Shown here: positions 1 through 38,553 of the stretch, piece after piece
How the letters are laid out: every line of letters begins with the position of its first letter
Numbering within the stretch: position 1 is the first letter of the stretch
Origin: a virus
Virus genome (UHGV): UHGV-0007863
Length of the DNA: 38,717 bases
Strand: one strand, 5' to 3'
Notes under the pieces: generated by a model
Seen by the model: only the letters and a program-made list of their open reading frames with translations
Told to the model about the DNA's origin: nothing
The model's database searches: none
Translations under genes and position numbers: made by a program

Positions 1-47
1 TTAACAGCTAACTCATAGCAACTCATTCCTATTCAGATACTAATTTA

Positions 48-73
48 ACCCTCTGTTTTTACAGAGGGTTTTT
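48..73. repeat. Terminator-like hairpin ACCCTCTGTTTTTACAGAGGGTTTTT; candidate attL core (left prophage boundary)
   Basis: Stem CCCTCTG/CAGAGGG followed by a T-run; a 24/26-identical copy sits at 38685-38710, with both differences in the loop. Confidence 0.4.
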
Positions 74-125
74 GTTTTTATGTATTCATTTCTATTCACT
101 CTACACCATATTTTTCGTCGGTACA

Positions 126-165
126 GGTGACGGTATTACCTTAAAGGTATACTCTCATACCGTCA
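126..165. promoter_or_regulatory. Integrase-upstream repeat cluster: GGTGACGGTAT (126-136), inverted copy ATACCGTCA (157-165), flanking a near-operator TTACC-TTAAA-GGTAT (136-150)
   Basis: Read directly; the same 11-mer GGTGACGGTAT recurs at 38559-38569 just inside the right end, as expected for integrase arm-type sites. Confidence 0.35.
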
Positions 166-192
166 TGAAAATGGTTTCTATACGGGTGAATT

Positions 193-1449
193 GTGCTTAC
201 CGATACAAAATTAAAAAACCTCAAGCCGCAGGACAAACTGTACAAGGTCTCCGATCGTGACGGGCTGTATGTAGCTGTGCTTACGTCAGGCACGGTCTCG
301 TTTCGCTATGACTACCGTATCAACGGTCGCCGCGAAACACTGGTAATCGGGCAGTATGGGCGTGACGGTATCAGCCTGGCAGAAGCGCGAGAAGAACTGA
401 TTGCTGCAAAGAAGCTGCTTAAAGCAGGCCAGTCACCGGCTGCGGCTAAACGTGACGGTATCAAAAAGATTCGTGGTGCCGAGACGTTTGCGGTACATAC
501 CGACAGTTATATGAAACACGTCATCCTGGCTGACAGTACCCGCGCAATGAAGCAGGCGGTGATCGACCGTGACATACTTCCGGTTCTTGGCAACAAAATG
601 ATGGCTGAAATTACCACATCGATGGTTCGTGATTTGTGTGACCGGATTGTCGAACGCGGTGGTCGGGCAACAGCAGTACAGGCCAGGGAGATCATCAGCA
701 GCGTATACCGTCACGCCAATGACCGTGGTCATGGTTTGTTTAATCCTGCGGCTGACATTAAACCTTCGTCTATCGCCATATTTAAACCACGAGAGCGAAC
801 ACTGACACCAGAAGAAATTGGCCTGTTCTTCCGCACGCTGGATGCCATTGGTGCTATGGGCACTATGAAAATGGCTTTAAAGCTGGTGCTTATCACTATG
901 GTTCGTAAAGGCGAATTCACCAATGCAACGTGGGATGAAATAGATTTTAAAAAATGGACATGGACAATTCCTTCAGACCGCATGAAGGGAAGCCGGGCGC
1001 ACGTTATTTACCTGCCTAAACAGGCACAGGATATATTGGTTGGGTTGCAGATGTGCGCTGGTGGAAGTGAATATCTGGTTCCTGGTCGTTACAATTTCCG
1101 GAAGCCATTATCTAATGCCGCGCTGAACTCTCTGATCGACAGAACGGTGAAAATAATAAATGAAGATGGTGAGCATATTCAGGGCTTCACCGTACACGAT
1201 ATGCGCCGTACAGCCAGTACGTTGTTGCATGAGGCTGGTTATCCTTCAGACTGGATTGAAAAGGCGCTGGCACATGAGCAGAAAGGTGTGCGCGCCGTAT
1301 ATAACAAAGCGGAATACGCCAGACAGCGCGCCTGGATGTTGCAGCAGTGGGCCGATATGATTGATTCCTGGATTAACGGGGAGCATACGGATCTGATTCC
1401 GTTCTCCCCGTCGAAGTTTGAGAGGTGGATGGAAGACAGTAATAAATAA
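193..1449 (+). CDS. int: Tyrosine integrase, P4-type (N-terminal arm-binding domain)
   Basis: 418 aa; N-terminus LTDTKLKNLKP...YRINGRRE typical of P4-like integrases; C-terminal catalytic region with HDMRRT and a conserved Tyr region; GTG start; position at the element end. Confidence 0.9.
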   Translation: MLTDTKLKNLKPQDKLYKVSDRDGLYVAVLTSGTVSFRYDYRINGRRETLVIGQYGRDGISLAEAREELIAAKKLLKAGQSPAAAKRDGIKKIRGAETFAVHTDSYMKHVILADSTRAMKQAVIDRDILPVLGNKMMAEITTSMVRDLCDRIVERGGRATAVQAREIISSVYRHANDRGHGLFNPAADIKPSSIAIFKPRERTLTPEEIGLFFRTLDAIGAMGTMKMALKLVLITMVRKGEFTNATWDEIDFKKWTWTIPSDRMKGSRAHVIYLPKQAQDILVGLQMCAGGSEYLVPGRYNFRKPLSNAALNSLIDRTVKIINEDGEHIQGFTVHDMRRTASTLLHEAGYPSDWIEKALAHEQKGVRAVYNKAEYARQRAWMLQQWADMIDSWINGEHTDLIPFSPSKFERWMEDSNK

Positions 1450-1451
1450 TT

Positions 1452-2111
1452 CTATCCTTCCTGGACTTTGGTAAGCGTCAGATTTCCGCAGAACACTGCG
1501 CCGGTGTCGATGTACATCTGGTTTGCATACACCAGTGGGTGATGTGCTGGCGTATGACCGAAGATGAACAAATCGGCACCGGTTATCTCCGAGACAATAC
1601 CGTCCTGCGCGTCGCTAACCCGCTCACGATTCCATATCACCATTTCTTCTGGTACTGGCTTATCGAATGCGTATTCGTTGTGCGGGTAGTCTGCGTGACA
1701 GATGACGACCTTCTTATTGCCGGTAACCAGTTCGATAATCATCGGGAGGTTGGTAATCTTTGGCAGAAGGTATTTGAGTTGCACATCCTGCTCAGAATCA
1801 AGTTGGTGCCACCATCCACCGCCGTTTGACATCCAATGTCCGAAACTTCCGCCGTTGACCAGTGCATCCAGCATCATCTGCTCATGGTTGCCACGAACAG
1901 CTCGGAACCACGGCATAGTAATCAAATCCAGGCATTCGACGTTTTCAGCGCCGCGGTCAACAAGGTCACCAACGGAAATAAGCAAATCGCGCGCCGGGTC
2001 GAATGAAACTTTGTCGAGTTCGTTCATCAGCAGCGTGTAGCACCCATGCAGATCGCCGACGACGAAGATATTGCACCAGTCAGCGCCATTGATGCGTTGA
2101 TATAGGTTCAT
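1452..2111 (-). CDS. Ser/Thr protein phosphatase, calcineurin-like metallophosphoesterase (lambda NinI / PrpA-like)
   Basis: 219 aa; PPP-family motifs GDLHG, GDLVDRG and GNHE present in order. Confidence 0.85.
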
Positions 2112-2770
2112 GCTGCACGCTCCCGCCCCTGGTTGTCTGTTGGTGACAGCGGAGCATTGCTGAATGCATTTGTTAATCTGGCAATATCCAACGCGTATCC
2201 AGGGTGTAGTTGCACTGCCGGGTCTTCACACTGATTACCCCAAACATCGAAGCCATGAGACGACTGGCGGGCGAACAGTTCAATGCGAGAAACATCGCCT
2301 AACAATTGCACAAGTTTTTCACGAACGACATCTGGTTTTCTTGAGTGCTCAAGCCGCGGTGCGGTAAATGACTGAACGATCCCTGCATTAATGCGCGGAG
2401 GTAGTTTTCCCTTTACCGCAAACAGGCAATCTTCACTATTGGCGCGAGTCATGTGTCCCATACCCATAACCAGTTTATCTGGTTGTCGACTACCACATTT
2501 TATCCACGTGAAGCCCTTCATCGTCATCAGACGAAATCCCCAGGCTTCAACAACTTTTAGTGCTTCGAGTGGTTGTGTTGGCACCCACCACATGGCCAAC
2601 AGACAGTTTTCATCGGCCAAATCCCACACAGGAAGGCGGCAGATATCCAGCACACTCATAACCGGATATTTAAAACCGACACCGCGATTACCATCTGCGG
2701 CTTTGTCCCGGTATACCCAAGGTGGATCTGCATAGATTAGTGTGTATTTCTTAGTCATAAACCACCCCAC
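2108..2770 (-). CDS. MT-A70-family N6-adenine DNA methyltransferase
   Basis: 220 aa; catalytic DPPW motif in IYADPPWVY near the N-terminus; 4-nt ATGA overlap with the downstream phosphatase gene. Confidence 0.8.
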
Positions 2771-3050
2771 AACATCCTATGCCGCTATAGTCGCCACGGC
2801 GAAGGCCGTTACCTTTTGTGATACATTGGTCCCTGCGAACCGCGATCCTTGCACGCTCAACATCACCAGAAGCAACATCCATGCACTGAAGCCAAAGGTG
2901 GGCGGCAATGCGGAACTGCCCTTTTTTCTCTCTTTCAATCGCGCGTTTTTCGATCTCTATCGCCGCAGGAGTAACGGCAACAACCTTTGAAGGGCTGCGC
3001 ATTGAAACCTTGTTCATGTGATATTTTTCAAGTCGGCTTAACTTTCTCAC
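2751..3050 (-). CDS. Hypothetical protein, first gene of the phosphatase/methyltransferase sub-operon
   Basis: 99-aa ORF overlapping the methyltransferase start by 20 nt; an internal Met could be the true start; no recognisable motif. Confidence 0.4.
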   Translation of the reverse strand: MRKLSRLEKYHMNKVSMRSPSKVVAVTPAAIEIEKRAIEREKKGQFRIAAHLWLQCMDVASGDVERARIAVRRDQCITKGNGLRRGDYSGIGCCGVVYD

Positions 3051-3159
3051 TTAATCCAACCCTCTCTGAAAATTAATGCCAGCAGATAAAGCCATGCTGA
3101 AACAGAGGCCAGGAATAAGTACCATCCTGACCATTTGCTCCAGTGCCTTAGCAGCGCAC

Positions 3160-3408
3160 TCATGCAGCGTTGCTCACAGGACGATATACACGTTGCTGAA
3201 CAGGAGGTTTTTTACCCTGGAACTCTGCCGGGCTTGCTGCCTGACGTTCATCAAGCCAACGCTCAACTTCGTCACGGTTCCATGCGCAGCGTTTGTCAGT
3301 GATATACCAGCGTTTAGGAAATTCACCTGCGCGCTCCATACGGTCGATAGTGCTCCATGACAGTGGCACCACCGCCAGGAGTTCCTTCTTACCTAATGCA
3401 CCTTTCAT
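3160..3408 (-). CDS. AlpA-family phage transcriptional regulator / excisionase-like protein
   Basis: 82 aa; LLAVVPLSWSTIDRMERAGEFPKRWYITDKRCAWNRDEVERWL matches the AlpA-type helix-turn-helix pattern. Confidence 0.75.
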   Translation of the reverse strand: MKGALGKKELLAVVPLSWSTIDRMERAGEFPKRWYITDKRCAWNRDEVERWLDERQAASPAEFQGKKPPVQQRVYRPVSNAA

Positions 3409-3457
3409 AAATACCTCTCTTGGTTGCAGTGCGGCGCGCGTGGCGCCGCGGTGGTGG

Positions 3458-4339
3458 TTACATAGATGTTTCGTTTAATTCTTCCCGACGAACGCTGTAA
3501 ACGTCGGTGGCTTTTGCCAGCAGTTCGTCATCATCTGAAAGTTTTTGTGCAATGTATTTGTAAGCCTTATCCAGTTCGGAGACAGTGCTGTAATTCATCG
3601 CTGCGCTGGTAAAGGCCATCAGCATTTCTTCTGGATCACGGCTATCCGCTTTACGCGTTTGCTCATCAGGCTTTTTCGCTGGTTTAGCGTTGATCAGACT
3701 GTTCATTCCCGCAGCAGTGGTCGTTTGCGGAGTAATGTCTCGCTCAACGCGCGGTGCCGTTTCCTGTAATTCGTCAGGGGTGTAAACACCGAGAAGTACA
3801 TCAGGAGCGTGCAGGCGAGCCCATCGTTTCGTGCAAAGATAGGCAAGCTGCTGGCGCGGATCCTGTTCCCACAATGGAGAGTTACGCACTCCGGCTTGCG
3901 CCATACTGATGGTAAGCTCACGGGGTTCTGCTTCTCCTTTAAGAACTGCTGACACAGTTACCGTCAGATTCGGTGATTTATCTGTTTTGCCGTTAACATT
4001 CGACCAGTCACCGCTCCAGCGATAATTCAGGCGTGTCGCTAGCAGGCTGGAAGAGGATACGACCGCGTTTACCAACTGTGCTTCGTAGCCTAACGTTCCG
4101 TTTACCACATGCGTTTTCTGCGCCACGGCGAAAGGGTTCATTCCCCACTGTGCCGCCTGCATGGTCACCGCCAGACAATCGGCAGGTTTGCCTTCAAGAT
4201 GTTTCGGTACAGTCGCTTTGCTTTGTGACATCAACTCCGCGAAACGCACCAGTTGATTCATGCCCTCCGGGCTGAAGATTGCCGCAGCAGTACCTACAGT
4301 TGCGCCTGGTTGTGATGTGATTGCGATATCATTGCTCAT
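3458..4339 (-). CDS. Single-strand annealing protein, Bet/RecT superfamily
   Basis: 293 aa; segment AAQWGMNPF resembles the lambda Bet core (ANQYGLNPW); 4-nt overlap with the upstream exonuclease gene. Confidence 0.65.
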   Translation of the reverse strand: MSNDIAITSQPGATVGTAAAIFSPEGMNQLVRFAELMSQSKATVPKHLEGKPADCLAVTMQAAQWGMNPFAVAQKTHVVNGTLGYEAQLVNAVVSSSSLLATRLNYRWSGDWSNVNGKTDKSPNLTVTVSAVLKGEAEPRELTISMAQAGVRNSPLWEQDPRQQLAYLCTKRWARLHAPDVLLGVYTPDELQETAPRVERDITPQTTTAAGMNSLINAKPAKKPDEQTRKADSRDPEEMLMAFTSAAMNYSTVSELDKAYKYIAQKLSDDDELLAKATDVYSVRREELNETSM

Positions 4340-5157
4340 ACGTACATATCCTGTTTACGTGCCCAGTCAGGGCGTTTAATAATTTCCACTCCGCCCCATT
4401 CATCGTTGATGCGGCATTCGTGATAGGTATTCAGATCCCGGCGGAACAGAGCGTGCCCGGCATCGACATCTGGCGCATCCAGCTCGAACACGCGTACCGG
4501 ATACCGACCACAATCAATGCTTTCGCTCACGGCAAGAAAGAAAAAACCATGCGGCTGACCAGTAACCCTCATTGCGCCTTCGCGGTACATTGCGTCCTGC
4601 ACGTGGTAGCGGAATTCCTCGATGTGGCGTGCAAAACGGTCCATATCTGCAACCTTTTTCACGTCGACGATCACGTTGTGCTCGTTCAGCCATTTGTCTG
4701 GACGAATTCGGCACAACTCACCCGTCTCTTCATCGTTCCAGTACATTGATGCTTCGCAGTAACCAGGTGCTTCCAGCATCCAGCGTGCCGCCGGGTGAGC
4801 CATTGCGCTATCACGCATCAGCTCCAGTTTTCGCCACTGCTCGACATCAAGTACCGTAATACCCATATCCGCCACATCACGAAGAAATGCTTCTTCGTCA
4901 GCTTTACCTTGTTTTGTCCGACGATCGAACTTCGGTGAAACAATGAAGCGTTTGTCGAATTCTCCAGGCTCCAGAAGCAGACAGTGCAATGCGGTTCCCA
5001 TATCCAGTGCAGACTTTTTCTCTTCGTCTTCTGGTGCTGCCTGAACCCATTTCAGAAGGGCAGGGTTCTTAGCCACCATATCTAGCTGCGACTTACTCAC
5101 GCCGTCACCGGCGTGGTAGTCCTCGTTGCTGATATCGAAATAAATTCCCGGATTCAT
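4336..5157 (-). CDS. PD-(D/E)XK exonuclease, RecE C-terminal-domain-like partner of the annealing protein
   Basis: 273 aa; D-x-K signature (IVDVKKV) and synteny with the annealing-protein gene. Confidence 0.65.
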   Translation of the reverse strand: MNPGIYFDISNEDYHAGDGVSKSQLDMVAKNPALLKWVQAAPEDEEKKSALDMGTALHCLLLEPGEFDKRFIVSPKFDRRTKQGKADEEAFLRDVADMGITVLDVEQWRKLELMRDSAMAHPAARWMLEAPGYCEASMYWNDEETGELCRIRPDKWLNEHNVIVDVKKVADMDRFARHIEEFRYHVQDAMYREGAMRVTGQPHGFFFLAVSESIDCGRYPVRVFELDAPDVDAGHALFRRDLNTYHECRINDEWGGVEIIKRPDWARKQDMYV

Positions 5158-5453
5158 GCCGCGTCCCTCTGCCCATCAATCTGATCAGCCAGATCCCAGC
5201 GGGCGATAATTGCCATTGCCTCGCGCCGGTAGGCATCCATTAGTTCTTCGAACTCAGGGCTGTCTTTAGCGGCCTCCAGTACTTCCTGGCGAACGCCTTT
5301 AACTGTTACAACGTCAAAAGTTGATGCCAGTTGATGAAGCCGGATACTCTCAATCAGTTCAACTTGTCGGTCATATAGCTGTTCTGACAGGCGGTAGTCC
5401 TTGTCGAATGCCAGCATGATTTTTTGAAGATTTTTCTGCTGATTAACGTTCAT
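5154..5453 (-). CDS. Hypothetical early protein
   Basis: ORF track gives 5154-5468; the internal ATG at 5453 (MNVNQQ...) has a strong GGGAGGG Shine-Dalgarno 6 nt upstream, so the shorter start is preferred. Confidence 0.5.
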   Translation of the reverse strand: MNVNQQKNLQKIMLAFDKDYRLSEQLYDRQVELIESIRLHQLASTFDVVTVKGVRQEVLEAAKDSPEFEELMDAYRREAMAIIARWDLADQIDGQRDAA

Positions 5454-5455
5454 TA

Positions 5456-5608
5456 TCAGCCCTCCCATATCTCGTTATCGTTGGCCACATCGCGAGCTTC
5501 TTTGCTGACGAAAGCCCACTTAATGCCTTCCTGTAATGTGCGGAACTTCCAGCTCATGAATCCGCATGCAGTAACGCAGTACCAACCGTTGATGATTTTC
5601 CACTGCAT
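5456..5608 (-). CDS. Candidate small protein (50 aa, Trp-rich), first gene of the leftward early operon
   Basis: Hand-translated: MQWKIINGWYCVTACGFMSWKFRTLQEGIKWAFVSKEARDVANDNEIWEG; GAGGT 8 nt upstream of ATG; below the ORF-track size cut-off. Confidence 0.3.
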   Translation of the reverse strand: MQWKIINGWYCVTACGFMSWKFRTLQEGIKWAFVSKEARDVANDNEIWEG

Positions 5609-5627
5609 AACTTGTTACCTCGGTCTG

Positions 5628-5704
5628 TTACCGTTGAGGTAATAATTATGCGTATCTGGTTTGATGTCAATAGATATGAGTTAAAAAAATTACCCGTTAG
5701 GTAA
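5628..5704. promoter_or_regulatory. Two perfect TTACC-N5-GGTAA palindromes (5628-5642, 5690-5704); candidate leftward operator (OL-like)
   Basis: Read directly: TTACC-GTTGA-GGTAA and TTACC-CGTTA-GGTAA in the intergenic gap between the repressor terminator and the leftward operon. Confidence 0.6.
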
Positions 5705-5711
5705 TCAAATA

Positions 5712-5739
5712 GGCAATAAAAAAGCCGCCATGAGGCGGC
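5712..5739 (-). terminator. Rho-independent terminator after the repressor gene
   Basis: Hairpin GCCGCC-ATGA-GGCGGC followed on the minus strand by TTTTTTATT. Confidence 0.6.
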
Positions 5740-5761
5740 TTACTTACTGAAAAATATAGTT

Positions 5762-6346
5762 TTATTGTTTGCTTTTTTCGTTCTGGTTGATGACAAATTC
5801 AATGTAACTTTCGATCTTTGCTTTCTCGGTTTCGGGTAACAATGCGTAGCGTGAGCGGTCATAGTTGATAGTCGCAGGGTCGTGCGGGTGAATCAGTAGT
5901 TCATATCCGTGACGCCCGAATGCGGATGCAACATTCTCCAGGGTGGAAATGGAAACGCTGACCTCATTGTTTAACAGGCGGCTGATTGTCACCTGGGCGA
6001 CGCCGGATGCGCGGTGAAGTTTTCCCTGTGTTGAAAGGTCGCGGCTTTCGCTCATCCAGCGTTCCAGGTTGTGAGCCGCCAGCTGACCTATATCGCTCGG
6101 GCCGACAGGCTGAAAACCCTCCTGAGAAAGCGAACGATCAATATCAAGCCAGTTACGGGGTTTATTGGCGGCAGCTTCAATTTTTCGTGCAACCTGGTCG
6201 CCGATAACCTTCTTGCCAAGAGCCCAGCGGTTTACCAGATTTGCCTGAGTTCCAAGTTTTTCTGCCATCCGCGTCTGAACACCATTGAATTCACGGTCGA
6301 TCAAGTCGTTGAGATTTTGCCTGCGGACGTCCTGGATACTTTTCAT
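5762..6346 (-). CDS. Prophage repressor (CI-like) with two HTH-like segments and no recognisable S24 peptidase domain
   Basis: 194 aa; HTH-like segments GVQTRMAEKLGTQANLVNRW and SGVAQVTISRLLNNEVSVSISTLENVASAF; no Ser-Lys dyad domain seen; divergent from a cro-like gene. Confidence 0.7.
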   Translation of the reverse strand: MKSIQDVRRQNLNDLIDREFNGVQTRMAEKLGTQANLVNRWALGKKVIGDQVARKIEAAANKPRNWLDIDRSLSQEGFQPVGPSDIGQLAAHNLERWMSESRDLSTQGKLHRASGVAQVTISRLLNNEVSVSISTLENVASAFGRHGYELLIHPHDPATINYDRSRYALLPETEKAKIESYIEFVINQNEKSKQ

Positions 6347-6401
6347 TTTCTGGAAAATCGCCTCATATATGAATCAGTAGATGATTCAATTTAAAGCAAT
6401 A

Positions 6402-6464
6402 TTACCCAACAGGTAAATGCACCTCATAGGTAACTATCCTTGATTTTTGTTACCTTATGGGTGA
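6402..6464. promoter_or_regulatory. Tripartite operator between repressor and cro-like genes: TTACC-CAACA-GGTAA (6402-6416), GCACC-TCATA-GGTAA (6419-6433), TTACC-TTATG-GGTGA (6450-6464)
   Basis: Three copies of the same dyad in the 154-bp divergent intergenic region, overlapping a -35-like TTGATT at 6440-6445. Confidence 0.65.
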
Positions 6465-6500
6465 ATATTTATTATCTGAAATAAATATCAGGCAATAGCT

Positions 6501-6731
6501 ATGAGCGATAACGGACATTTCGATTTCAAAAAGCACTGGCTTGCACTTACTCCGGATGAGCGTGAAGCCTTCGCACAGGAAGCCGGAACGACGAGTCACT
6601 ATATCCAGACTCACTTAACAGGTAAGCGCAAAATGCCAGGTAAGGTATTGATGAATGGGCTTTTTAAAGCCTGTAAAACAAGACAATGGCTGCGCTCAAA
6701 AGCAGAACTGGCATACTTCTTCTACTCATGA
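6501..6731 (+). CDS. Cro-like HTH regulator
   Basis: 76 aa; divergent from the repressor across the operator cluster; HTH-like AQEAGTTSHYIQTHLTGKRKMP. Confidence 0.6.
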   Translation: MSDNGHFDFKKHWLALTPDEREAFAQEAGTTSHYIQTHLTGKRKMPGKVLMNGLFKACKTRQWLRSKAELAYFFYS

Positions 6732-6753
6732 TATCCAGCTACAACCCTCTGTA

Positions 6754-6778
6754 GACCGCCACCCGGCGGTCTTTTCAT
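6754..6778 (+). terminator. Rho-independent terminator downstream of cro-like gene
   Basis: GACCGCC-ACCC-GGCGGTC followed by TTTTC. Confidence 0.55.
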
Positions 6779-6786
6779 ATCTATTC

Positions 6787-6801
6787 GTACCTCAAAGGTA
6801 A
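6787..6801. promoter_or_regulatory. Near-perfect operator-like palindrome GTACC-TCAAA-GGTAA
   Basis: One mismatch to TTACC-N5-GGTAA; lies between the cro terminator and the next gene. Confidence 0.45.
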
Positions 6802-6879
6802 TAAAAAACCAAATCTGGTTGATCAAATTTTCCAATTGTGCAAAATAGCCAATATCAATAACAAAAAGGGGCGGAAAAA

Positions 6880-7092
6880 TTGAAGATAGTAACCAGAATG
6901 GAGGCCGCAAAAGCCGGGTTAAATCGCTATTTCACAGGAAAGCGGTGCCGTCACGGCCATCTCTCTGAAAGGTATGTTCTGAACGGAACATGTGTTGAAT
7001 GTGCAATGAATAGCGCCAACCGCCATCGTAATGAATTTGCTTGTGCACTAAAGAGTGCAAGAGGGGAAACCTATGGCAAGCAGCTGGATTAA
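6880..7092 (+). CDS. Small Cys/His-rich protein at the cII position
   Basis: 70 aa with C-x-H-G-H ... C-x-x-C spacing suggestive of zinc binding; TTG start with GGGG upstream; overlaps the initiator start. Confidence 0.4.
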   Translation: MKIVTRMEAAKAGLNRYFTGKRCRHGHLSERYVLNGTCVECAMNSANRHRNEFACALKSARGETYGKQLD

Positions 7093-7903
7093 GGTTGAAG
7101 TTATCACTCCTGATAAACCTGAAATTTTTCAGATAGCAGAAATTCTGGGTATTGATCCAGATGCTGTTCTTGGAAAGCTGGTTCGTATATGGGCATGGGC
7201 TGACCAGCAAACAATAGACGGTAACGCTGGCAGCGTTACAAAAGGAGTACTTGATAGACTCGCTTTTATTACAGGATTTGCTGACGCCCTCATTAGCGTC
7301 GGATGGCTTGCTTATCATGACGGCAAACTAATTCTTCCAAACTTTGAGCGACACAATGGAGAATCATCGAAAAAACGTGCACTTACGAATAGAAGAGTGG
7401 CAGAGCATCGAAAACGAGTAACGCAAAAAGTAACGCCAACAGCGTTACAAAAGGAGTTACCAGAGGAAGAGGAAGAGGAAGATATATATAAAACCCCACA
7501 CATAGCGCACGTGCGCGAGGGTGCTCCGACCAGTGAAGCGAACGGTATGCCGTTGCAGGTGGCTGAACCTGAATTTCTGGATGGCCTGAGTGAACCCATC
7601 GGGAAATTTCCGATGACCGATGGCTGGCATCCGTCGCCGGATTTTCGACGGCGTGCTGCGCTGTGGGGAACGGCCCTGCCGGAACCGGAATTTACACCTG
7701 CTGAACTTGCTGCATTCCGGGATTACTGGATGGCTGAGGGCAAAGTGTTCACGCAGGTTCAGTGGGAACAAAAATTCGCCAGGCACGTAAATCATATCAG
7801 GGGAAAATCAAAAAACGCCGGGAAAAGCGATGAGCTTGACTGGAATAACACTGACTGGATAGAAGGGGTGTGGGATGAAATCAACTCCAGAACTTCTCAA
7901 TGA
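7073..7903 (+). CDS. Putative replication initiator (O-like) with internal iteron-like repeats
   Basis: ATG at 7073 with AGAGGGG Shine-Dalgarno; lies immediately upstream of the P-like gene; acidic linker PEEEEEED; function inferred from synteny and the internal repeats. Confidence 0.55.
   Translation: MASSWIKVEVITPDKPEIFQIAEILGIDPDAVLGKLVRIWAWADQQTIDGNAGSVTKGVLDRLAFITGFADALISVGWLAYHDGKLILPNFERHNGESSKKRALTNRRVAEHRKRVTQKVTPTALQKELPEEEEEEDIYKTPHIAHVREGAPTSEANGMPLQVAEPEFLDGLSEPIGKFPMTDGWHPSPDFRRRAALWGTALPEPEFTPAELAAFRDYWMAEGKVFTQVQWEQKFARHVNHIRGKSKNAGKSDELDWNNTDWIEGVWDEINSRTSQ
7221..7494. repeat. Candidate origin of replication inside the initiator gene
   Basis: GTAACGC half-sites at 7221(+), 7233(-), 7418(+), 7430(+), 7442(-); two copies of a ~28-bp unit GTAACGC-N5-GCGTTAC-AAAAGGAGT (7221-7248, 7430-7457) read in different frames; then (AGAGGA)x3 at 7462-7479 and an AT-rich GATATATATAAAA. 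Confidence 0.4.
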
Positions 7904-8651
7904 GTACGATCGCTTACGTGAGCATGGTGTTGCTGTGCATGAAGAGCGGCGTGACAGCAATGGCAAAAAGGAGCAGGTTGCTAGAATTTTCAATGAACTA
8001 TTTGTCCAGTTACAGGCTGCATTTCCTGCAAGCGTTTCGACCATAAGGGAGCAGAACAAACTTAATGAATTCCGTAAGCAATGGATGCTTGCGTTTCTGG
8101 AGAATGGGATCACAACAATGGAACAGGTTAACGCTGGTATGCGCCACGCCCGCGCCAGTGAATCTCCGTTCTGGCCGTCGCCAGGGCAATTTATCAAGTG
8201 GTGTAAAGACAGCAAGATGGTTCTTGGCGTCACCATTGACGATGTGATGGCGGAGTTTCACCGGTACAGCAAGGAAAAAAGTTTATATCCTGGTGGTCCC
8301 GAAAGATTCCCGTGGCGGCATCCGGTTATGTACTGGGTCGTATGTGATACCCGCCGTGCAATGTATCAGCGCCAGCTTAGCGAGATTGAGGTTGAGAAAC
8401 ACGCGCGCAGGCTGCTCGATGATTGGGCGAAAAAGGTGGCTTCCGGACAGCAGATACCCGATCCGGTGATCAGCATACAGGCAAAGCCAGAGCCCATGAG
8501 TACACCTCCGGACACAGGGAGAGACGTTTACCACCCGCCAGGGCGAAGTTTCGGGTGCATGCCTAACGCCGCCACCCTGGGGGGAATAACACCGGCGCAG
8601 TGGCTGATGGAGGAATACAGGCGGGGAAAGGCGGCAGGATTTATCAAGTAA
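7875..8651 (+). CDS. Lambda P-like replication protein (replicative helicase loader)
   Basis: 258 aa; FPAS..REQNKLNEFRKQWMLAFLENGITTMEQVNAGMRHARASESPFWPSPGQFIKWCK closely parallels the lambda P N-terminal region as recalled. Confidence 0.8.
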   Translation: MKSTPELLNEYDRLREHGVAVHEERRDSNGKKEQVARIFNELFVQLQAAFPASVSTIREQNKLNEFRKQWMLAFLENGITTMEQVNAGMRHARASESPFWPSPGQFIKWCKDSKMVLGVTIDDVMAEFHRYSKEKSLYPGGPERFPWRHPVMYWVVCDTRRAMYQRQLSEIEVEKHARRLLDDWAKKVASGQQIPDPVISIQAKPEPMSTPPDTGRDVYHPPGRSFGCMPNAATLGGITPAQWLMEEYRRGKAAGFIK

Positions 8652-8688
8652 TACCAGCGCGATAGCGCATTTTTTTACGTCTCGATGA

Positions 8689-8765
8689 TTACCTTCTGGG
8701 TAATAAAATATTCTAAAATCTATTGATTTCGTGTCTTATGTGGTTTTTAATTACCTCTTGGGTAA
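8689..8765. promoter_or_regulatory. Two perfect TTACC-N5-GGTAA palindromes (8689-8703, 8751-8765) upstream of the nin-like block
   Basis: TTACC-TTCTG-GGTAA and TTACC-TCTTG-GGTAA; the second ends 3 nt before the ATG at 8769; preceded by a weak GC hairpin plus a 7-T run at 8657-8676. Confidence 0.6.
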
Positions 8766-8768
8766 ATC

Positions 8769-9113
8769 ATGAGAAAACAGATACAGGCTCTTGGTCGACT
8801 CAAAACAGGCCAGATGAACAAAACAGAATCTGCGTATTGCCAGCACCTTGAGCAGCGTAAACGTGCAGGGGAAATCGCCTGGTATCGATTCGAGGGTATC
8901 AAGCTGCGGTTAGCTGACAACACGTTCTATACGCCCGATTTTGCTGTGATGCTCGCCACCGGCGAGATGGAACTGCACGAAGTGAAAGGTTTCTGGACCG
9001 ACGACGCCAGGGTGAAAACCAAAGTCGCCGCAGATCAGTATCCGTTCCGAATCATCGGGGTAACGGTTAAACCAAAGAAAGCAGGTGGTGGCTGGAACAT
9101 CGAAGAGTTCTGA
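8769..9113 (+). CDS. DUF1064-like protein (nin-region family, possible nuclease fold)
   Basis: 114 aa; pattern KAGEI..W.FE...L.....YTPDF.V......E..EVKG matches recollection of the family. Confidence 0.5.
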   Translation: MRKQIQALGRLKTGQMNKTESAYCQHLEQRKRAGEIAWYRFEGIKLRLADNTFYTPDFAVMLATGEMELHEVKGFWTDDARVKTKVAADQYPFRIIGVTVKPKKAGGGWNIEEF

Positions 9114-9174: not shown

Positions 9175-9717
9175 ATGGAAAGTAATATCAAAGGGTTAGT
9201 TTCCGCCGGGCATGAGATGGCTTCGGAACTGAAAGCAGAATGTGGTGCCGTTGATATGCGTAGTGTGGCAAAGCTGATCAGCGATTTGGCAACGAAACTG
9301 GAAGTGCAACTGGTGCGTGCTAATGCGCTGGCGGCGGAGAATGCTGGGCTGAAAAAGTTCTGTGAAGACGCAGCGTTTGATGCTGATTATGAGTCAGAAC
9401 TTCTTGGAGAACGCGGTGGATTTGTTGATGGGCTTAGCTTGGTAAAAACCCCAGCCACCGACGCTTTCCTGGCTGAAATTCGTGCGGAAGCACGCAACGA
9501 GGGAGTTAACTATACCGCCAGCCGTCTTGCTGCTGCGTTCAATCACGGATTTATCAATAAGTCTTTGCGTGAAGTTTTCGACGTTACACGCATGATTTTG
9601 TCAGCGAAAGAAGAGTTGGCTAATGAAGCGCATCCGATTGATGGCCTGTCTGGTGAATATGCGGAGAAATCCCTTGAAGAATGGGCGGAACAGATTCGCA
9701 AAGGAGCTGACAAGTGA
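9175..9717 (+). CDS. Hypothetical protein
   Basis: 180-aa ORF, co-oriented with neighbours; no motif recognised. Confidence 0.5.
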   Translation: MESNIKGLVSAGHEMASELKAECGAVDMRSVAKLISDLATKLEVQLVRANALAAENAGLKKFCEDAAFDADYESELLGERGGFVDGLSLVKTPATDAFLAEIRAEARNEGVNYTASRLAAAFNHGFINKSLREVFDVTRMILSAKEELANEAHPIDGLSGEYAEKSLEEWAEQIRKGADK

Positions 9718-10124
9718 AGAAGATGATTTTTATCGCGGCATTGTTGGTGAATATCCAACAAGTGCATGCTTCAGCAGCTATTGTAGCCTCTACCGCCGCG
9801 ACTACGGCTGCTGTAGCTGCTGCGAACTCTGCGAATATCGCAAACCAACAGGCACAGCGTGCTGCTAATGCATCAGCCAGCGTTCACTCAATCACCATTA
9901 AGAGCAGTAAGCAAAATCTGGGATTCATAACGTGCGGCACGCGTTCTAATGAAGCTGTAGGTTCACTTGGATGTACGGTATATGGGGGTAGTGAGAATAG
10001 AGAAATTCCATGGAAAACGTGGCCCGGATACGTTCTTGGCTCGAAGCTCCCGGCCAGTTATGAAGTAAACGCCGTATCGTTTGATCACTATAACGGCGTG
10101 GCAACGGTCTATTTTGCATATTGA
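9714..10124 (+). CDS. Small secreted protein with an Ala/Thr/Asn/Gln low-complexity linker
   Basis: 136 aa; signal-peptide-like N-terminus MKKMIFIAALLVNIQQVHA|S; Cys-containing C-terminal domain ending in aromatic YFAY; GTG start overlapping the upstream stop. Confidence 0.5.
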   Translation: MKKMIFIAALLVNIQQVHASAAIVASTAATTAAVAAANSANIANQQAQRAANASASVHSITIKSSKQNLGFITCGTRSNEAVGSLGCTVYGGSENREIPWKTWPGYVLGSKLPASYEVNAVSFDHYNGVATVYFAY

Positions 10125-10132
10125 GGCTCCGC

Positions 10133-10666
10133 ATGAAATTCTCCAAATTTTCTGAGTTGGTGAATCGTATTTTGTTGAATCGTATTTTGTCCAACAACCA
10201 CAGCCATCGTCGCGATATGGATGTAACGATCGTTGTTCATTCGCCTGGCAGCATTGGTTCAACACCCTCAGTTGAGGTTCAGTCAATTCACGCTGGTTTT
10301 GATTGGGATTCCGGGAAAGTGCTGATTTTCCCAGCACAGCCACTGACCACTCTAACACCAGAACAGATTACTGATATTACTGATAGTGTGCGCAAAGGTC
10401 AGTCCTGGCACGCATATCAGGAATACAAGAAGCATAAAGAGCAGTTGGAAAAATTATCGATTGAACTTGATACCGCAAAACAGCGCATTGCAGAGCTGGA
10501 GAGCAATCGCGCGGCGCTGGCGGCGGAGCATGGTATTCAGATTGCAATAAATGAACTGCTTGCTCTGGCCCCGCGTCTGGATAAACGAGCGGTGGATGCA
10601 CTCTCTGTGGCTGTGGAGCACCTGTGTAAACTGATTAAGAAGGAGGCAGTCAGTGAGCAAAATTAA
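10133..10666 (+). CDS. Hypothetical coiled-coil protein
   Basis: ATG at 10133 preferred over TTG at 10121; C-terminal heptad-like region; contains an in-frame tandem 15-bp duplication at 10160-10189. Confidence 0.5.
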   Translation: MKFSKFSELVNRILLNRILSNNHSHRRDMDVTIVVHSPGSIGSTPSVEVQSIHAGFDWDSGKVLIFPAQPLTTLTPEQITDITDSVRKGQSWHAYQEYKKHKEQLEKLSIELDTAKQRIAELESNRAALAAEHGIQIAINELLALAPRLDKRAVDALSVAVEHLCKLIKKEAVSEQN

Positions 10667-11381
10667 TTACCAGGCACTGCGTGAGGCGGCAGAGAAAGCA
10701 ACGTGGGGAGACTGGGACTCATATAAACCACACCGTGGCGCACGTGGTTATAAGGTCCGACTAAGTGGTCAGGCCATTGCGCAACACGTTCTGAAAAACA
10801 ACGCTGAATTTATTGCTGCCTTTAATCCAAAGGTTGCTTTGGCATTACTGGATGAACTGGAAAGAAACCAGCAATACATCAAATCTCGCGACCAGGAGAA
10901 CGAGGATATTGCGCTAACGGTAGGGAAGCTGTTAATCGAAAACGGTCAGCTTGTTGCCGATACGCTACGCCACTTAGCTGATAACGAAATCGACTCTGAT
11001 TATTTTGCTATCACCTCAACTAATGAGAACGGTACTGAAATTGATCATGAGATGTCTATTACCGATTACGCACTGCAAGCTGCCGGAACTGTAGACGAAT
11101 TGGTTGCGGCGCTGGAAGCCGCAAAATCAAAACTCAACGAGCAGCGTGAATATTACGAGGGAGTAATCGCGGATGGAAGTAAGCGCATAGCAGAGTTAGA
11201 AAGTGGTTCTCAGGCACAAAAGTTAGTTGAAGCAATCATTGTTGCGATAGAAAACGAACAGGAACGTCTTTTTGATGAAGATTACCTAATGGATTCGAAA
11301 GAATGCATTGACGTAATTCGTGAAGAAGTAAAGCGATGGAATGATTCCCGCGCCGCTGGCATTCGCATCAAAGGAGAGTGA
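10653..11381 (+). CDS. Ead/Ea22-like accessory protein
   Basis: 242 aa; N-terminus ...ALREAAEKATWGDW... as recalled for the Ea22-like family; acidic coiled-coil content. Confidence 0.45.
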   Translation: MSKINYQALREAAEKATWGDWDSYKPHRGARGYKVRLSGQAIAQHVLKNNAEFIAAFNPKVALALLDELERNQQYIKSRDQENEDIALTVGKLLIENGQLVADTLRHLADNEIDSDYFAITSTNENGTEIDHEMSITDYALQAAGTVDELVAALEAAKSKLNEQREYYEGVIADGSKRIAELESGSQAQKLVEAIIVAIENEQERLFDEDYLMDSKECIDVIREEVKRWNDSRAAGIRIKGE

Positions 11382-11382
11382 G

Positions 11383-11793
11383 ATGAACGCTATAACCAAA
11401 GAACGTATCAAATTATTCATTAAAAATCCGCTTGATAACGGACTTACTCGTGGCGAACAAATGGAACTGGCACGAATTGCTCTGGCATCGCTGGAAGCAG
11501 AGGCAGTTATGTTCTGTATATCAGGACAAAATGTAGATTCAGAAGAACATGTATCAACCAGCAAAGCGGTTGTTGATGCCTGGGTTGAAGAATGGAATCA
11601 GGTTGACGGAAGTCCTGGCGAACCACTGTACAAAACTATGCCACTCTACTATCACGCTGCCTTGCCAGCGCCGGTAGTGCCGGATGAAATGTATTGGCAG
11701 GATGCGCCAGTTGAAGGCAGCAGCAAAGCGGCTGCATACGCTACAGGCTGGAACGCCTGCCGCGCCGCTATGCTTCATGGGAAAGGAGAGTGA
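11383..11793 (+). CDS. Hypothetical protein, short paralog of the 12069-12833 gene
   Basis: 136 aa; first ~40 aa near-identical to the protein at 12069 (MNAITKERIKLFIKNPLDNGLTRGEQMELARIALASLEA); shares the GWNACRAAMLH motif; AAGGAGAG Shine-Dalgarno. Confidence 0.55.
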   Translation: MNAITKERIKLFIKNPLDNGLTRGEQMELARIALASLEAEAVMFCISGQNVDSEEHVSTSKAVVDAWVEEWNQVDGSPGEPLYKTMPLYYHAALPAPVVPDEMYWQDAPVEGSSKAAAYATGWNACRAAMLHGKGE

Positions 11794-12068: not shown

Positions 12069-12833
12069 ATGACCACTATTACCAAAGAACGTATTGAATT
12101 GTTCATTAAAAATCCGCTTGAAAACGGGCTTACCCGTGGTGAACAAATGGAACTGGCACGGATTGCGCTGGCATCGCTGGAAGCAGATCCAGTTAAACGA
12201 GTTAACTCAGATCAGATGCGCCGAGTCTGCTTAGAAGCTAATCGCCATTTAGATAAATATGACGCGATGGCGAAAGAGGTAAATAAGTTGCTTGGACGCA
12301 TCGCCCCGCCAGCGCCGTTATTGCCGGAGGAAATGACACCAAAGCAAGCGTCACGTTCATATTGCGGAGAAGTTCGCGGTTATCGTGATGGCTGGAACGC
12401 CTGCCGCGCTGCCATGCTTCATAGTGCCGAACCTGCAAGTAATCATGAAGAGTTGCCGCTTGATTATCTCCAAGGTCAAAAAGATGGTCTTGAATGGGCT
12501 GCGCAGCTTGCAGAAGCAAATCACCCACAAACTGGCGACTGGCTTTACGATGACCCGCTGGAGCTGGCTAAAGCTATCAGAAAAGGTCCTGACATGCCCG
12601 AATTCGATGGACCAACTCCGGGAACTCCGGATGGTTGGATAAGCTGTAGTGAGCGAATGCCGGAAGAAACGGGTGACATTATTGTTGTTTCGGATGGCAT
12701 TGTAATGTCAGGGATTTCTTATTCTCGTCGTGACGGGTTCTATATAGCCGCATTGGAGTACGACGACGATGAGCCAATTGGCGGTGTAACCCACTGGATG
12801 CCTCTACCAGAACCGCCGCAGGAGGTGAAGTGA
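12069..12833 (+). CDS. DUF551-like protein
   Basis: 254 aa; C-terminus ...GGVTHWMPLPEPP matches the DUF551 hallmark as recalled; N-terminus paralogous to the 11383 gene. Confidence 0.6.
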   Translation: MTTITKERIELFIKNPLENGLTRGEQMELARIALASLEADPVKRVNSDQMRRVCLEANRHLDKYDAMAKEVNKLLGRIAPPAPLLPEEMTPKQASRSYCGEVRGYRDGWNACRAAMLHSAEPASNHEELPLDYLQGQKDGLEWAAQLAEANHPQTGDWLYDDPLELAKAIRKGPDMPEFDGPTPGTPDGWISCSERMPEETGDIIVVSDGIVMSGISYSRRDGFYIAALEYDDDEPIGGVTHWMPLPEPPQEVK

Positions 12834-16552: not shown

Positions 16553-16629
16553 TGGCGTGGCATGCAGGATTCGAACCTGCGACCAACCGCTTAGAAGGCG
16601 GTTGCTCTGTCCGACTGAGCTAATGCCAC
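16553..16629 (-). tRNA. tRNA-Arg (anticodon UCU), phage-encoded
   Basis: Manual cloverleaf: acceptor GTGGCAT/ATGCCAC, D-arm GCTC-AGTCGGACA-GAGC, anticodon arm ACCGC-CTTCTAA-GCGGT, T-arm GCAGG-TTCGAAT-CCTGC, discriminator G, encoded CCA; 77 nt. Confidence 0.85.
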
Positions 16630-36518: not shown

Positions 36519-36740
36519 CTGCTACCGCGCCATTTGATGGTGCGGAATTCAACTAATCCTCTATATTTTGAATCATTTCTGTACTGCAATCTCTTCAGAG
36601 TTATGTAAAAGGCAAGCCTTATTATCGACATGAAAGGAAGGGGATTGACAATACATGGGTAACAAAAAACCATAAATGGTTTATCATGCATAATGCCTTT
36701 ACTATTCAGGAGGTAGTTATGCATATAAACGGTGGAAAAC

Positions 36741-37145
36741 ATGTCAGCTCAACTAACCAGTGAAACTTTAAATCAGTGGCTTAGCATGAGTTCTCTGGCG
36801 GCGGTGATAGCAGGAGTTCCTCCTGAGGTTGCTTTGGGGGCTTTGGCTGGGGCGGTAATTTTTGTTACCTCTGCGGTAGAGTATCCTATTCGTCGTCGTG
36901 TACTCTTGTCGATGCTTAGCTTTCTCTGCGGCCTTCTTTTTTATAAACCAGCAGCATCAATTCTTATCGGCATAGCCAGCCTGATCCCTACCATCACGCA
37001 GGACTCTTTTGAAAAAGGGATTGTTTTCTCAGTTGGCGCATTCGTGTCAGCAATTGTTGCTGTGCGTATTGGTATATGGCTCTATCACCGTTCCGATAAT
37101 CCACGCGAGTTAATTCCGGGGAGAAAAGACGATGGTAACGCATGA
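36741..37145 (+). CDS. Putative holin
   Basis: ATG 36741 with GGTGG 5 nt upstream; ~134 aa with three to four hydrophobic helices and a charged C-terminus; first gene of the lysis cassette. Confidence 0.55.
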   Translation: MSAQLTSETLNQWLSMSSLAAVIAGVPPEVALGALAGAVIFVTSAVEYPIRRRVLLSMLSFLCGLLFYKPAASILIGIASLIPTITQDSFEKGIVFSVGAFVSAIVAVRIGIWLYHRSDNPRELIPGRKDDGNA

Positions 37146-37440
37146 GTTTTTTTTGCTTATCACCAATGCAGTTATTTGTACTGGCATAGCAATTCGCGTT
37201 GTCACATTCCGGCGTAACGGCTCTCAACATCGAAGATGGGGAGGGTGGCTTGCTTATTTCCTTATTGTTGCTGCGGCCAGTATTCCTGTTCGTGTCGTCT
37301 ATGCAATCTGGTTACGCACGCCAATGGCTGTGGATTTATCTGAGGTCATTATCAACGCTGTCATGCTCGCCGCGGTTATTAAAACACGCGGTAACGTTGT
37401 TCAGATTTTCAAAATATCGAGGTCTAAACATGGAGATTAA
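37132..37440 (+). CDS. Second small membrane protein of the lysis cassette (holin or antiholin-like)
   Basis: 102 aa with at least two transmembrane segments; overlapping stop/start with holin and endolysin. Confidence 0.45.
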
Positions 37441-38059
37441 ACAATTCCAGCGAGCTGCTGGTATTAGCGAGTCGCTGGCCGCACGCTGGTTCTCGCATAT
37501 AACTTCTGCGATGAAAGAGTTTGGTATCAGCAAAGCAGAAGATCAGGCAATGTTTATTGCTCAGGTCGGGCATGAGTCTGGGGGCTTCACCCGGTTGCAG
37601 GAGAATTTCAACTACAGCGTCAGCGGTCTGGCTAACTTTGTTCGGGCTGGGCGTCTCACTCAGGGACAGGCCAACGCATTGGGGCGACGCGCAGGCGAAC
37701 CACCATTGCCACCTGAGCGCCAGAGAGCGATTGCCAATCTGGTGTACAGCAAACGCATGGGTAACAATGCTCCTGGCGATGGCTGGAACTACCGTGGGCG
37801 CGGACTTATCCAGATTACCGGTTTGAATAACTATCGTGATTGTGGAAACGCTCTTAAGGTTGACCTGCTGGAGAGTCCTGAATTGCTGGCGCAGGACGAA
37901 TACGCGGCTCGTAGCGCGGCGTGGTTCTTCTCCAGCAAAGGCTGCATGAAGTATACCGGAGATATTGCACGTGTAACTCTGCTTATCAATGGTGGCCGGA
38001 ACGGCATTGATGACCGGCGCGCGCGATACATCACTGCCAGTAAGGTGCTGGCGTTATGA
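37430..38059 (+). CDS. Endolysin, glycoside hydrolase family 19-like (chitinase-fold lysozyme)
   Basis: ATG 37430 in frame within ORF 37199-38059; motifs [12 protein letters not shown] and [12 protein letters not shown] recalled as typical of GH19-type endolysins; position between holin and spanins. Confidence 0.65.
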
Positions 38060-38553
38060 TCTGGGCATTCGCAAAAGCATACTGGAAACAGTTGGTTATC
38101 ATGGCGATGCTTGCTGTTCTGGTCATATCAGGAGTTGTAGCCTGGAATGCACACGGCATTCGTCAGTACGACGCCGGGTATGCGCAGGCACAGGAAGATC
38201 AGAAACAGGCTGATGATAAGGCCAGGTCACAACGTGATCAGGAGAAAACACAAATTGAACGTGAAGCACAATCCCGTATCGATGTGGCGCGTGTTGATGC
38301 TGAGCATGCTAATGCCGCTGCTGACAGCCTGCGCGCCGAGCTTGACAAAACCAAGCGACTCGCCGAACACTATACCGGATCTTTCCCCACTGGCACGCCA
38401 GCCAGCAAGGTCATCGGTGTGCTCGCCGACATGCTTGAAGAAAGCAACCGAGTTTACAACGCAACAGCAACTGAGGCTGAAAAGTATCGGATTGCAGGAG
38501 AATCCTGCGAACAGCAATACGATTCACTGAAGAAGCAAAAATCGTGGCACTGA
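38056..38553 (+). CDS. i-spanin (Rz-like)
   Basis: 165 aa; N-terminal transmembrane helix, charged coiled-coil periplasmic domain; immediately after the endolysin. Confidence 0.65.
38282..38530 (+). CDS. o-spanin (Rz1-like lipoprotein) nested in the +1 frame of the i-spanin gene
   Basis: [16 protein letters not shown]|C lipobox-type signal, Pro-rich mature region; entirely inside 38056-38553. Confidence 0.6.
   Translation: MWRVLMLSMLMPLLTACAPSLTKPSDSPNTIPDLSPLARQPARSSVCSPTCLKKATEFTTQQQLRLKSIGLQENPANSNTIH

Follow-up and report, generated by a model that had tools for sequence, protein, structure and literature searches.

To our knowledge, only a small number of periplasmically acting phage proteins are understood, among them Sp and Imm of T4, Sim of P1, Llp of T5, and Cor. 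T4 Spackle (Sp, gene 61.3) is an all-helical periplasmic protein which this lytic phage makes early and which blocks superinfection by inhibiting the gp5 lysozyme of the incoming phage. Llp of T5 and Cor of T1-, phi80- and N15-type phages are small outer-membrane lipoproteins that block the FhuA receptor, and P1 Sim is a protein of ~25 kDa made as a precursor with a signal sequence. PMC8546580, citing Kliem and Dreiseikelmann 1989, describes Sim as thought to stop superinfecting P1 from delivering its DNA to the cytoplasm. Here, we analyse an open reading frame (ORF) of 136 codons plus a TGA stop at positions 9714-10124 (+ strand) of the virus genome UHGV-0007863, identified from an ORF list and by direct reading of the sequence; the whole stretch of 38,717 nucleotides is referred to as the window. 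A sequence-only reading had described the product as a small secreted protein encoded among nin-like genes, and its suggestion of a role in host-surface modification or superinfection exclusion is plausible. The explanation that we favour, and consider reasonably probable, is that of a small periplasmic phage protein which would bind an envelope component during lytic growth.

The protein resembles Spackle in its small size (136 residues, compared with 97 in Sp), its location among non-structural genes and its MKK-type leader ending in AxA; the T4 record labels Sp 'spackle periplasmic' and sp lies among the T4 replication genes. However, the mature parts show no homology: hhalign gave a probability of 14.6% over 22 columns which cover the leader only, and in contrast to the all-helical Spackle the present domain is modelled with six strands, one helix and a Cys pair. 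Like Sim, it is predicted to be an exported phage protein, and its family is common on P1-like phage-plasmids, but Sim is much larger. P1 itself lacks a family homologue according to a tblastn search of the phage collection; sim was not found in positions 1-9000 and 84000-94800 of the P1 record, and the comparison with Sim was made via PHROGs only. Llp and Cor are likewise small exported proteins of enterobacterial phages, and one subclade of the present family (P0065-type) has the lipobox LSAC, whereas Cys is absent from the leader of the window protein, for which PHROGs showed no similarity to Llp or Cor; we know of no link between the family and FhuA. The lysozyme inhibitors Ivy, MliC/PliC and PliG are comparable as small periplasmic binding proteins stabilised by disulfides, but neither a Pfam match nor a Foldseek match to the PDB relates the window protein to Ivy, MliC or PliG.

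Based on features conserved throughout the family, we consider it very likely that the window protein is exported via Sec and cleaved after A19. Its predicted signal peptide (residues 1-19, 9714-9770, +) has the sequence MKKMIFIAALLVNIQQVHA followed by S20, which can be read directly as MKK, an 11-residue hydrophobic core (MIFIAALLVNI) and QQVHA. The signal-peptide-like N-terminus that had been pointed out from the sequence, with its VHA site before Ser, is therefore present with two Lys, V at -3 and A at -1. We assessed leaders by the presence of a positive n-region, a hydrophobic core of ~7-15 residues, a polar c-region, small residues at -3 and -1 and a cut 15-30 residues from the start, and in this rule-based check the window leader has the features of a Sec and signal peptidase I substrate. 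It contains no lipobox ([LVI][ASTVI][GAS]C, with Cys at +1), and lacking both this motif and a Cys it is therefore predicted to be cut by signal peptidase I rather than lipidated.

We aligned 32 diverse homologues that are 33-85% identical to the window protein (alignment A4), and all of them keep the signal-peptide rules although the leader sequences diverge. Leaders are 18-23 residues long, except for one of 30 residues whose start was probably mis-called, and the net charge of their tip is at least +1 in 32/32 (+1 or +2 outside the 30-residue leader). The uncharged core comprises 9-18 residues, position -3 is always occupied by a small residue and position -1 by Ala or Gly, and the mature part of every homologue contains two Cys, neither more nor fewer; K, R, D, H or Q is often found at -2 to -5, as in cleavable leaders. 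Export, first proposed for the window protein by itself, is thus supported by comparison across the family. Independent annotators came to similar descriptions: the record of the KLB16 homologue states that it 'contains ... a signal peptide domain', and close relatives are annotated as 'Prophage exported protein'.

A lipobox (LSAC, residues 14-17) does occur ahead of SHA and the following Ser in P0065 (L006 5001-5405), P0058 and P0061, and only there; P0056, a near relative of P0065, has LSAS in place of LSAC. P0065, which abounds on P1-like phage-plasmids, may be a lipoprotein. Because P0056 has LSAS, lipidation, if real, would be confined to the P0058/P0061/P0065 subclade.

It is improbable that the leader instead remains uncleaved and anchors a type II inner-membrane protein with its domain in the periplasm. 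Such an anchor would fit the sequence just after the predicted cut, where almost all clades have a hydrophobic segment with many beta-branched residues (SAAIVAS, AVIVQH, VVITKP, NVIISG), so that V or I at +2 to +4 after the AxA site lengthens the apolar stretch in most clades, and AlphaFold2 draws a single continuous helix over residues 2-55. However, the short uncharged core, the charged or polar residues at -2 to -5 in many members and the small residues at -3 and -1 in every homologue argue for cleavage. On an approximate Hessa scale, no window of 19-21 residues in the protein has a negative insertion energy, the best 19-residue window scoring +3.2 kcal/mol and the 11-residue core summing to -1.4; the maximum Kyte-Doolittle mean over 19 residues is 1.6. 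The protein thus lacks the stretch of at least ~19 residues with favourable insertion energy that is expected of an integral membrane protein. Insertion energy likewise led us to reject the idea that the Ala-rich segment forms a second transmembrane helix.

Cleavage after A19 would yield a mature product of 117 residues, 12.1 kDa and an isoelectric point of 8.6. It begins with a spacer (residues 20-57, 9771-9884, +), delimited by composition, which starts with the family-conserved hydrophobic tip SAAIVAS and comprises 17 Ala (45%), 5 Ser, 4 Asn, 3 Thr, 3 Gln and 3 Val among its 38 residues. This low-complexity region had been called a linker and, as the segment that varies most between clades in length (roughly 20-50 residues) and composition, it merits that description: it is ~40-50 residues long and rich in A/S/T/N/Q in the prophage and phage-plasmid clades, and ~20-30 residues long and rich in P/D/E/T in siphoviruses of 45 kb. 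AlphaFold2, which we ran on the diverse alignment for the full-length protein and on the domain alone, models the spacer as a helix at moderate confidence, with a block-mean predicted local distance difference test (pLDDT) score of 63-79.

The remainder forms a conserved C-terminal domain (residues 58-136, 9885-10121, +; ~70-80 residues), defined from alignment A4 and the AlphaFold2 model, which has the Cys residues and the aromatic end (VYFAY) that were described at the outset. Both Cys are invariant, Cys74 being encoded by TGC at 9933-9935 (+) and Cys87 by TGT at 9972-9974 (+), and the full set of invariant positions in the domain is G70, T73, C74, G75, C87, P104, Y116, D124, T131, Y133, F134 and Y136. 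The domain-only model has a pLDDT of 88.1 and a predicted template modelling (pTM) score of 0.77, and its fold consists of six strands and one helix (S1 69-74, S2 80-82, S3 86-91, S4 94-99, helix 100-111, S5 117-124, S6 129-135). Based on the invariant pair, C74 and C87 are probably joined by a disulfide made by DsbA. The domain is more likely to be a binding module than an enzyme: it spans ~70 residues, and Gly, Pro, Tyr, Thr and Cys account for most of the invariant positions, among which there are a single acidic residue (D124) and no His, Lys or Glu. We also considered the aromatic C-terminus as an outer-membrane beta-signal or as a ligand for a PDZ domain (DegS), and rejected both since the last strand lies inside the modelled fold and five homologues extend past the final Tyr. 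An outer-membrane beta-barrel, with at least eight amphipathic strands and an obligatory C-terminal aromatic beta-signal, does not fit a domain of ~70 residues.

The protein matches phrog_8805 of PHROGs over its full length (E=1e-85, 285.9 bits, residues 1-136 on profile positions 1-136 of 136), which places it in a narrow, uncharacterised, phage-only family. Scans against Pfam and NCBIfam returned nothing above noise and the PADLOC-DB defence models gave no family at E<=0.1; weak matches to Cas_Csy4, T2SSM and YghD (E 0.14-0.56) were dismissed as stemming from low-complexity or hydrophobic segments. In word-indexed searches the family closes at ~100 clusters of 90% identity, all of them 'hypothetical' or 'exported'. 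Using HMMER, we compared a profile of the family exhaustively with 1.84 billion representative proteins, which gave 18 matches at E<=0.001, of which the 13 at E<=1e-10 are all small family members; we assumed that four long matches with multiple matching stretches (P0106, P0108-P0110) are due to low complexity. Neither type of search found a characterised distant relative. A sequence search of the PDB with the family profile produced one chance match (E=2.8). For both the full-length model and the isolated domain, Foldseek searches of the PDB reached at best E ~0.4 with a TM score <0.4, the matches (ribosomal proteins and kinase N-lobes) being judged noise. In the BFVD structure search the sole match was the family member of KW1E_UTAR. 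Across Pfam, PHROGs, NCBIfam, PADLOC and the Spackle alignment, no similarity was found to known exclusion, defence or modification families, and a general literature search on periplasmic superinfection exclusion revealed no related family.

All of the ~18 loci that we inspected are phage, prophage or phage-plasmid DNA of Enterobacteriaceae, with hosts in Escherichia, Salmonella, Shigella, Citrobacter, Cronobacter, Rahnella and Klebsiella. Seven kinds of phage carry the family, namely epsilon15-like, P1-like, SSU5-like, Mu-like and yfd-type elements, Avunavirus Av-05 (Vequintavirinae) and siphoviruses of ~45 kb, the last two of which are sequenced phage isolates. To speak of a prophage protein, as was done initially, is therefore correct for the prophages and too narrow for the family. 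The yfd-type carrier is a prophage with yfdP, yfdQ and yfdR, which are genes of the cryptic prophage CPS-53, and the gene content of the Cronobacter carrier plasmid led us to class it as an SSU5-like phage-plasmid. In the phage collection, tblastn detected the family only in Av-05, KLB16, KLB22 and KW1E_UTAR, and the sequenced phiV10 and phiv142-3 are without the gene.

The P1-like phage-plasmid p702_18_3 encodes an identical protein, and the contig index has 1168 blocks with a variant of 49% identity on P1-like phage-plasmids (P0065). The P1-like copies sit in a variable region which in P1 itself separates pmgT-V from hot. Among complete E. coli genomes, 97 of 5426 have the gene, at 47 chromosomal and 54 plasmid places, and the carrier plasmids in PLSDB are all typed as non-mobilisable (66/66), with sizes of ~85-110 kb among those listed. 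In the Mu-like loci, nucleotide identity to the window drops to random at the gene borders, so that the unit of exchange can be a single ORF. In the ~45 kb siphoviruses, the gene is invariably preceded by one for a C5 cytosine methylase, and small membrane ORFs and then the terminase come after it.

Two of these settings have further features of interest. In the Cronobacter SSU5-like phage-plasmid, the family member is followed at a distance of 1.7 kb by a gene for an Ivy homologue (PF08816; L016 8140-8592). In the 45 kb siphoviruses (L003 3233-3737, L004 3246-3741, L009 5370-6014) the family member overlaps the methylase stop by 4 nucleotides and is followed, immediately ahead of the large terminase gene, by two small conserved ORFs whose products have a hydrophobic segment at the N-terminus (68-71 residues, and 57 residues with two Cys); this cluster may be a small set of envelope-directed genes.

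With an integrase gene (193-1449) and a lysis cassette (36732-38553), the window appears to represent an entire prophage of the phiV10/epsilon15-like type (Uetakevirus). Over its structural half (14-38 kb) it shares 98.9% identity with phage phiv142-3, and a prophage of the same type adjoins guaA in E. coli CUVET20-PYO2. Genes are arranged in the order integrase, recombination genes, repressor, DnaT-like and P replication genes, accessory block, terminase, structural genes and lysis cassette, and the ORF at 9714-10124 is located between replication gene P and the gene for the small terminase subunit, where its neighbours encode DUF1064, Ead/Ea22 and DUF551 proteins. The term nin-like thus holds for position; it does not hold for gene content, since the neighbours do not belong to the lambda Nin families and the protein itself, without a Pfam or NCBIfam match, is not one of NinB-NinH.

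No promoter-like or terminator-like site was found on the + strand between 7960 and 13062, and the gene is packed tightly against both neighbours, its GTG start codon (9714-9716, +) overlapping the TGA (9715-9717) that ends the preceding ORF 9175-9717, an arrangement suggestive of translational coupling. The gene therefore appears to be an internal member of the early-right operon and not an autonomous moron, in agreement with the early-operon expression that had been assumed. Together with the presence of the gene in phage isolates, this position points to a function in lytic development rather than in the lysogen.

From these observations we propose a sequence of events, of which the first three are highly probable. 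The gene would be transcribed as part of the early-right operon and translated from its GTG in coupling with the upstream gene. The 19-residue leader would direct the protein to Sec, with signal peptidase I cutting after VHA19. The product would then be a soluble periplasmic protein of 117 residues and 12 kDa, with a hydrophobic N-terminal tip, a probably helical Ala-rich spacer and a compact alpha/beta domain in which C74 and C87 become oxidised, probably through DsbA. The domain would act by binding rather than catalysis. In the weakest step, it would bind a conserved component of the host envelope or periplasm, or a component of an incoming phage, during lytic development, such that the infected cell is protected or conditioned, for example by exclusion of a superinfecting phage or by blocking envelope damage from outside, as with T4 Spackle or P1 Sim. 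We suggest this role because the gene has no promoter of its own, occurs in phage isolates and has been swapped as a single ORF among seven lineages which share only their enterobacterial hosts. A specific exclusion-type or envelope-protection function is tentative, and we regard it as a possibility that is more doubtful than the general explanation.

Several points weigh against the periplasmic binding protein that we favour, or against its more specific role. The cut after A19 is predicted by rule-based criteria, and the pairing of C74 with C87 is deduced from the sequences. The conserved V/I-rich tip after the cut is unusual and could mean that the leader is retained or has a second role. 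As phiV10 and phiv142-3 do without it, the gene is a dispensable accessory gene. Av-05 and the 45 kb siphoviruses are taken to be lytic on the basis of their taxonomy and mode of isolation. With regard to exclusion, PHROGs, which we take to include the Imm, Llp, Cor, Sim and SieA families, yielded no match to a superinfection-exclusion or lysis family at E<=0.01; nothing ties the protein to exclusion specifically, and direct alignment revealed no homology to Sp. Literature searches on the accession, the PHROG identifier, 'prophage exported protein' and KW1E_UTAR found nothing.

A bolder version of the same idea, which we rate as unlikely, is that the domain represents a periplasmic fold not seen before and that the protein is a portable single-gene envelope effector, either a new class of superinfection exclusion or a counter-defence factor, which binds a conserved component of the enterobacterial envelope. 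The V/I-rich mature N-terminus would perhaps add a strand to a sheet of the target, as the TonB box does. Such an effector would explain uptake of the gene by seven unrelated lineages, temperate phages and isolates alike.

A helper of lysis or envelope remodelling during phage release, such as a periplasmic antiholin-like factor or a partner of endolysin or spanin, is about as improbable as the signal anchor. It would be consistent with the predicted periplasmic location and expression in lytic growth, with the occurrence in isolates taken to be lytic and with the two small membrane-protein ORFs nearby in the 45 kb siphoviruses. However, a distance of 27 kb separates the gene from the lysis cassette of the window (36.7-38.6 kb), which encodes two holins, an endolysin of GH19 type and an Rz-like spanin; the gene belongs to the early and not the late operon, the carrier phages have unrelated lysis systems, and the PHROGs search described above matched no lysis family.

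We give slightly less credence to a lysogenic-conversion or host-interaction factor which alters the cell surface or acts on an animal host from within the lysogen. An exported protein whose gene is carried in pathogenic E. coli, Salmonella, Shigella and Cronobacter by prophages and phage-plasmids, with a Cronobacter copy 1.7 kb from the Ivy lysozyme inhibitor homologue, could be read in this way. The gene, however, has neither promoter nor terminator of its own and is translationally coupled within a repressed early operon; moreover, it is also present in isolates taken to be lytic, and its product has no export route beyond the periplasm.

Slightly less probable again is that the protein serves counter-defence in the periplasm, neutralising a host system by which phage is sensed or blocked at the envelope. 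Wide single-gene spread over unrelated phages, early expression and an orphan fold make up a pattern typical of anti-defence genes, but the proposal has neither precedent nor similarity behind it, PADLOC returned no match and no linkage to a defence locus was seen.

That the protein is not exported at all, because the start codon is wrong or the ORF spurious, is effectively refuted: nothing specific speaks for it beyond the use of GTG rather than ATG, whereas the start is kept in 10/10 alleles, no in-frame Met follows codon 4, and the ORF is under purifying selection with full-length homologues in distant phages. Across the ten alleles, which come from different genomic contexts, the start codon is GTG in eight and ATG in two, and a GGAG-type ribosome-binding site lies 7-8 nucleotides upstream in nine, even beside unrelated upstream genes. 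The exception is the allele of P0065-type on P1-like elements, which has only AAAGG, placed further upstream. In the window the site is AAGGAG (9701-9706, +), 7 nucleotides 5' of the GTG by direct reading. A start at a downstream ATG, which would have removed the leader, had been raised as an alternative to export; the sole other Met codon is codon 4, its use would drop just MKK, and it is replaced by ATC or ACA in Av-05, KW1E_UTAR and KLB16, so that no downstream start removes the leader.

Pairwise ratios of nonsynonymous to synonymous divergence (dN/dS) range from 0.12 to 0.68 among six alleles from different phage contexts, with 1.59 for one nearly identical pair. The corresponding pooled polymorphism ratio (pN/pS) for six alleles is 0.36, with 0.41 in the signal peptide, 0.30 in the C-terminal domain and 0.54 in the spacer, where purifying selection thus persists within the close clade. 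These values indicate purifying selection on the ORF. RefSeq annotates the same ORF as WP_000738190.1 in the prophage beside guaA of E. coli CUVET20-PYO2, and the identical protein is present on 506 contigs. We conclude that the ORF at 9714-10124 is a real, conserved phage accessory gene.

The gene has already been catalogued as encoding a hypothetical or 'exported' protein in an unstudied PHROG, and the present analysis adds context, not function. The family is small, with a confident model but no solved structure related to its fold. As a single gene it has passed between at least seven lineages of phages that infect Enterobacteriaceae, among them the P1-like phage-plasmids often met with in clinical E. 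coli and Salmonella, and such spread usually indicates a strong benefit that is independent of context. The identity of its target could reveal a new control of phage entry or envelope integrity. While nothing here would surprise a specialist, the combination of an orphan fold with spread over phage lineages makes the protein a reasonable candidate for an inexpensive functional screen.

The stop codon of the gene (TGA, 10122-10124, +) falls within the region of the GAGG ribosome-binding site of the next gene (10133-10666, +), which starts with ATG at 10133, 8 nucleotides past that stop. The N-terminal part of the downstream product matches phrog_6026; it has no signal peptide and a coiled-coil-like C-terminus. 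This gene travels with that of the exported protein in Av-05 and in elements of the epsilon15-like, yfd and P1-like (p702_18_3) types, with counterparts of 51-91% identity in the linked contexts, including Av-05, the yfd-type prophage and another epsilon15-like prophage, and its counterpart in CUVET20-PYO2 is a partial pseudogene according to RefSeq. No homologue of it is found beside the Mu-like, P0065-type P1-like, SSU5-like and 45 kb phage copies. A conserved two-gene module, which we had considered, is therefore only partly borne out, the downstream gene being linked in four contexts and not in the others.

On the upstream side, the ~200 nucleotides at 9500-9713, the 3' end of ORF 9175-9717, are 94-97% identical among the window, a yfd-type prophage (L012) and an epsilon15-like prophage (L015), and identity to L012 and L015 falls to 24-68% further upstream. 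Because the drop lies inside ORF 9175-9717, the mosaic junction is within the Ead/Ea22-related gene and not at a gene border. Elsewhere in the accessory block, ORFs 11341-11793 and 12069-12833 (+) share a nearly identical N-terminal stretch of ~40 residues (ITKERI.LFIKNPL.NGLTRGEQMELARIALASLEA) and both contain a GWNACRAAMLH motif; the second additionally encodes a DUF551 domain. From these sequences, the pair looks like the result of tandem duplication or module shuffling. Finally, a tRNA-Arg gene (anticodon TCT) at 16553-16629 (-) lies between the terminase and portal genes of the window, and the same feature is present in the CUVET20-PYO2 prophage.

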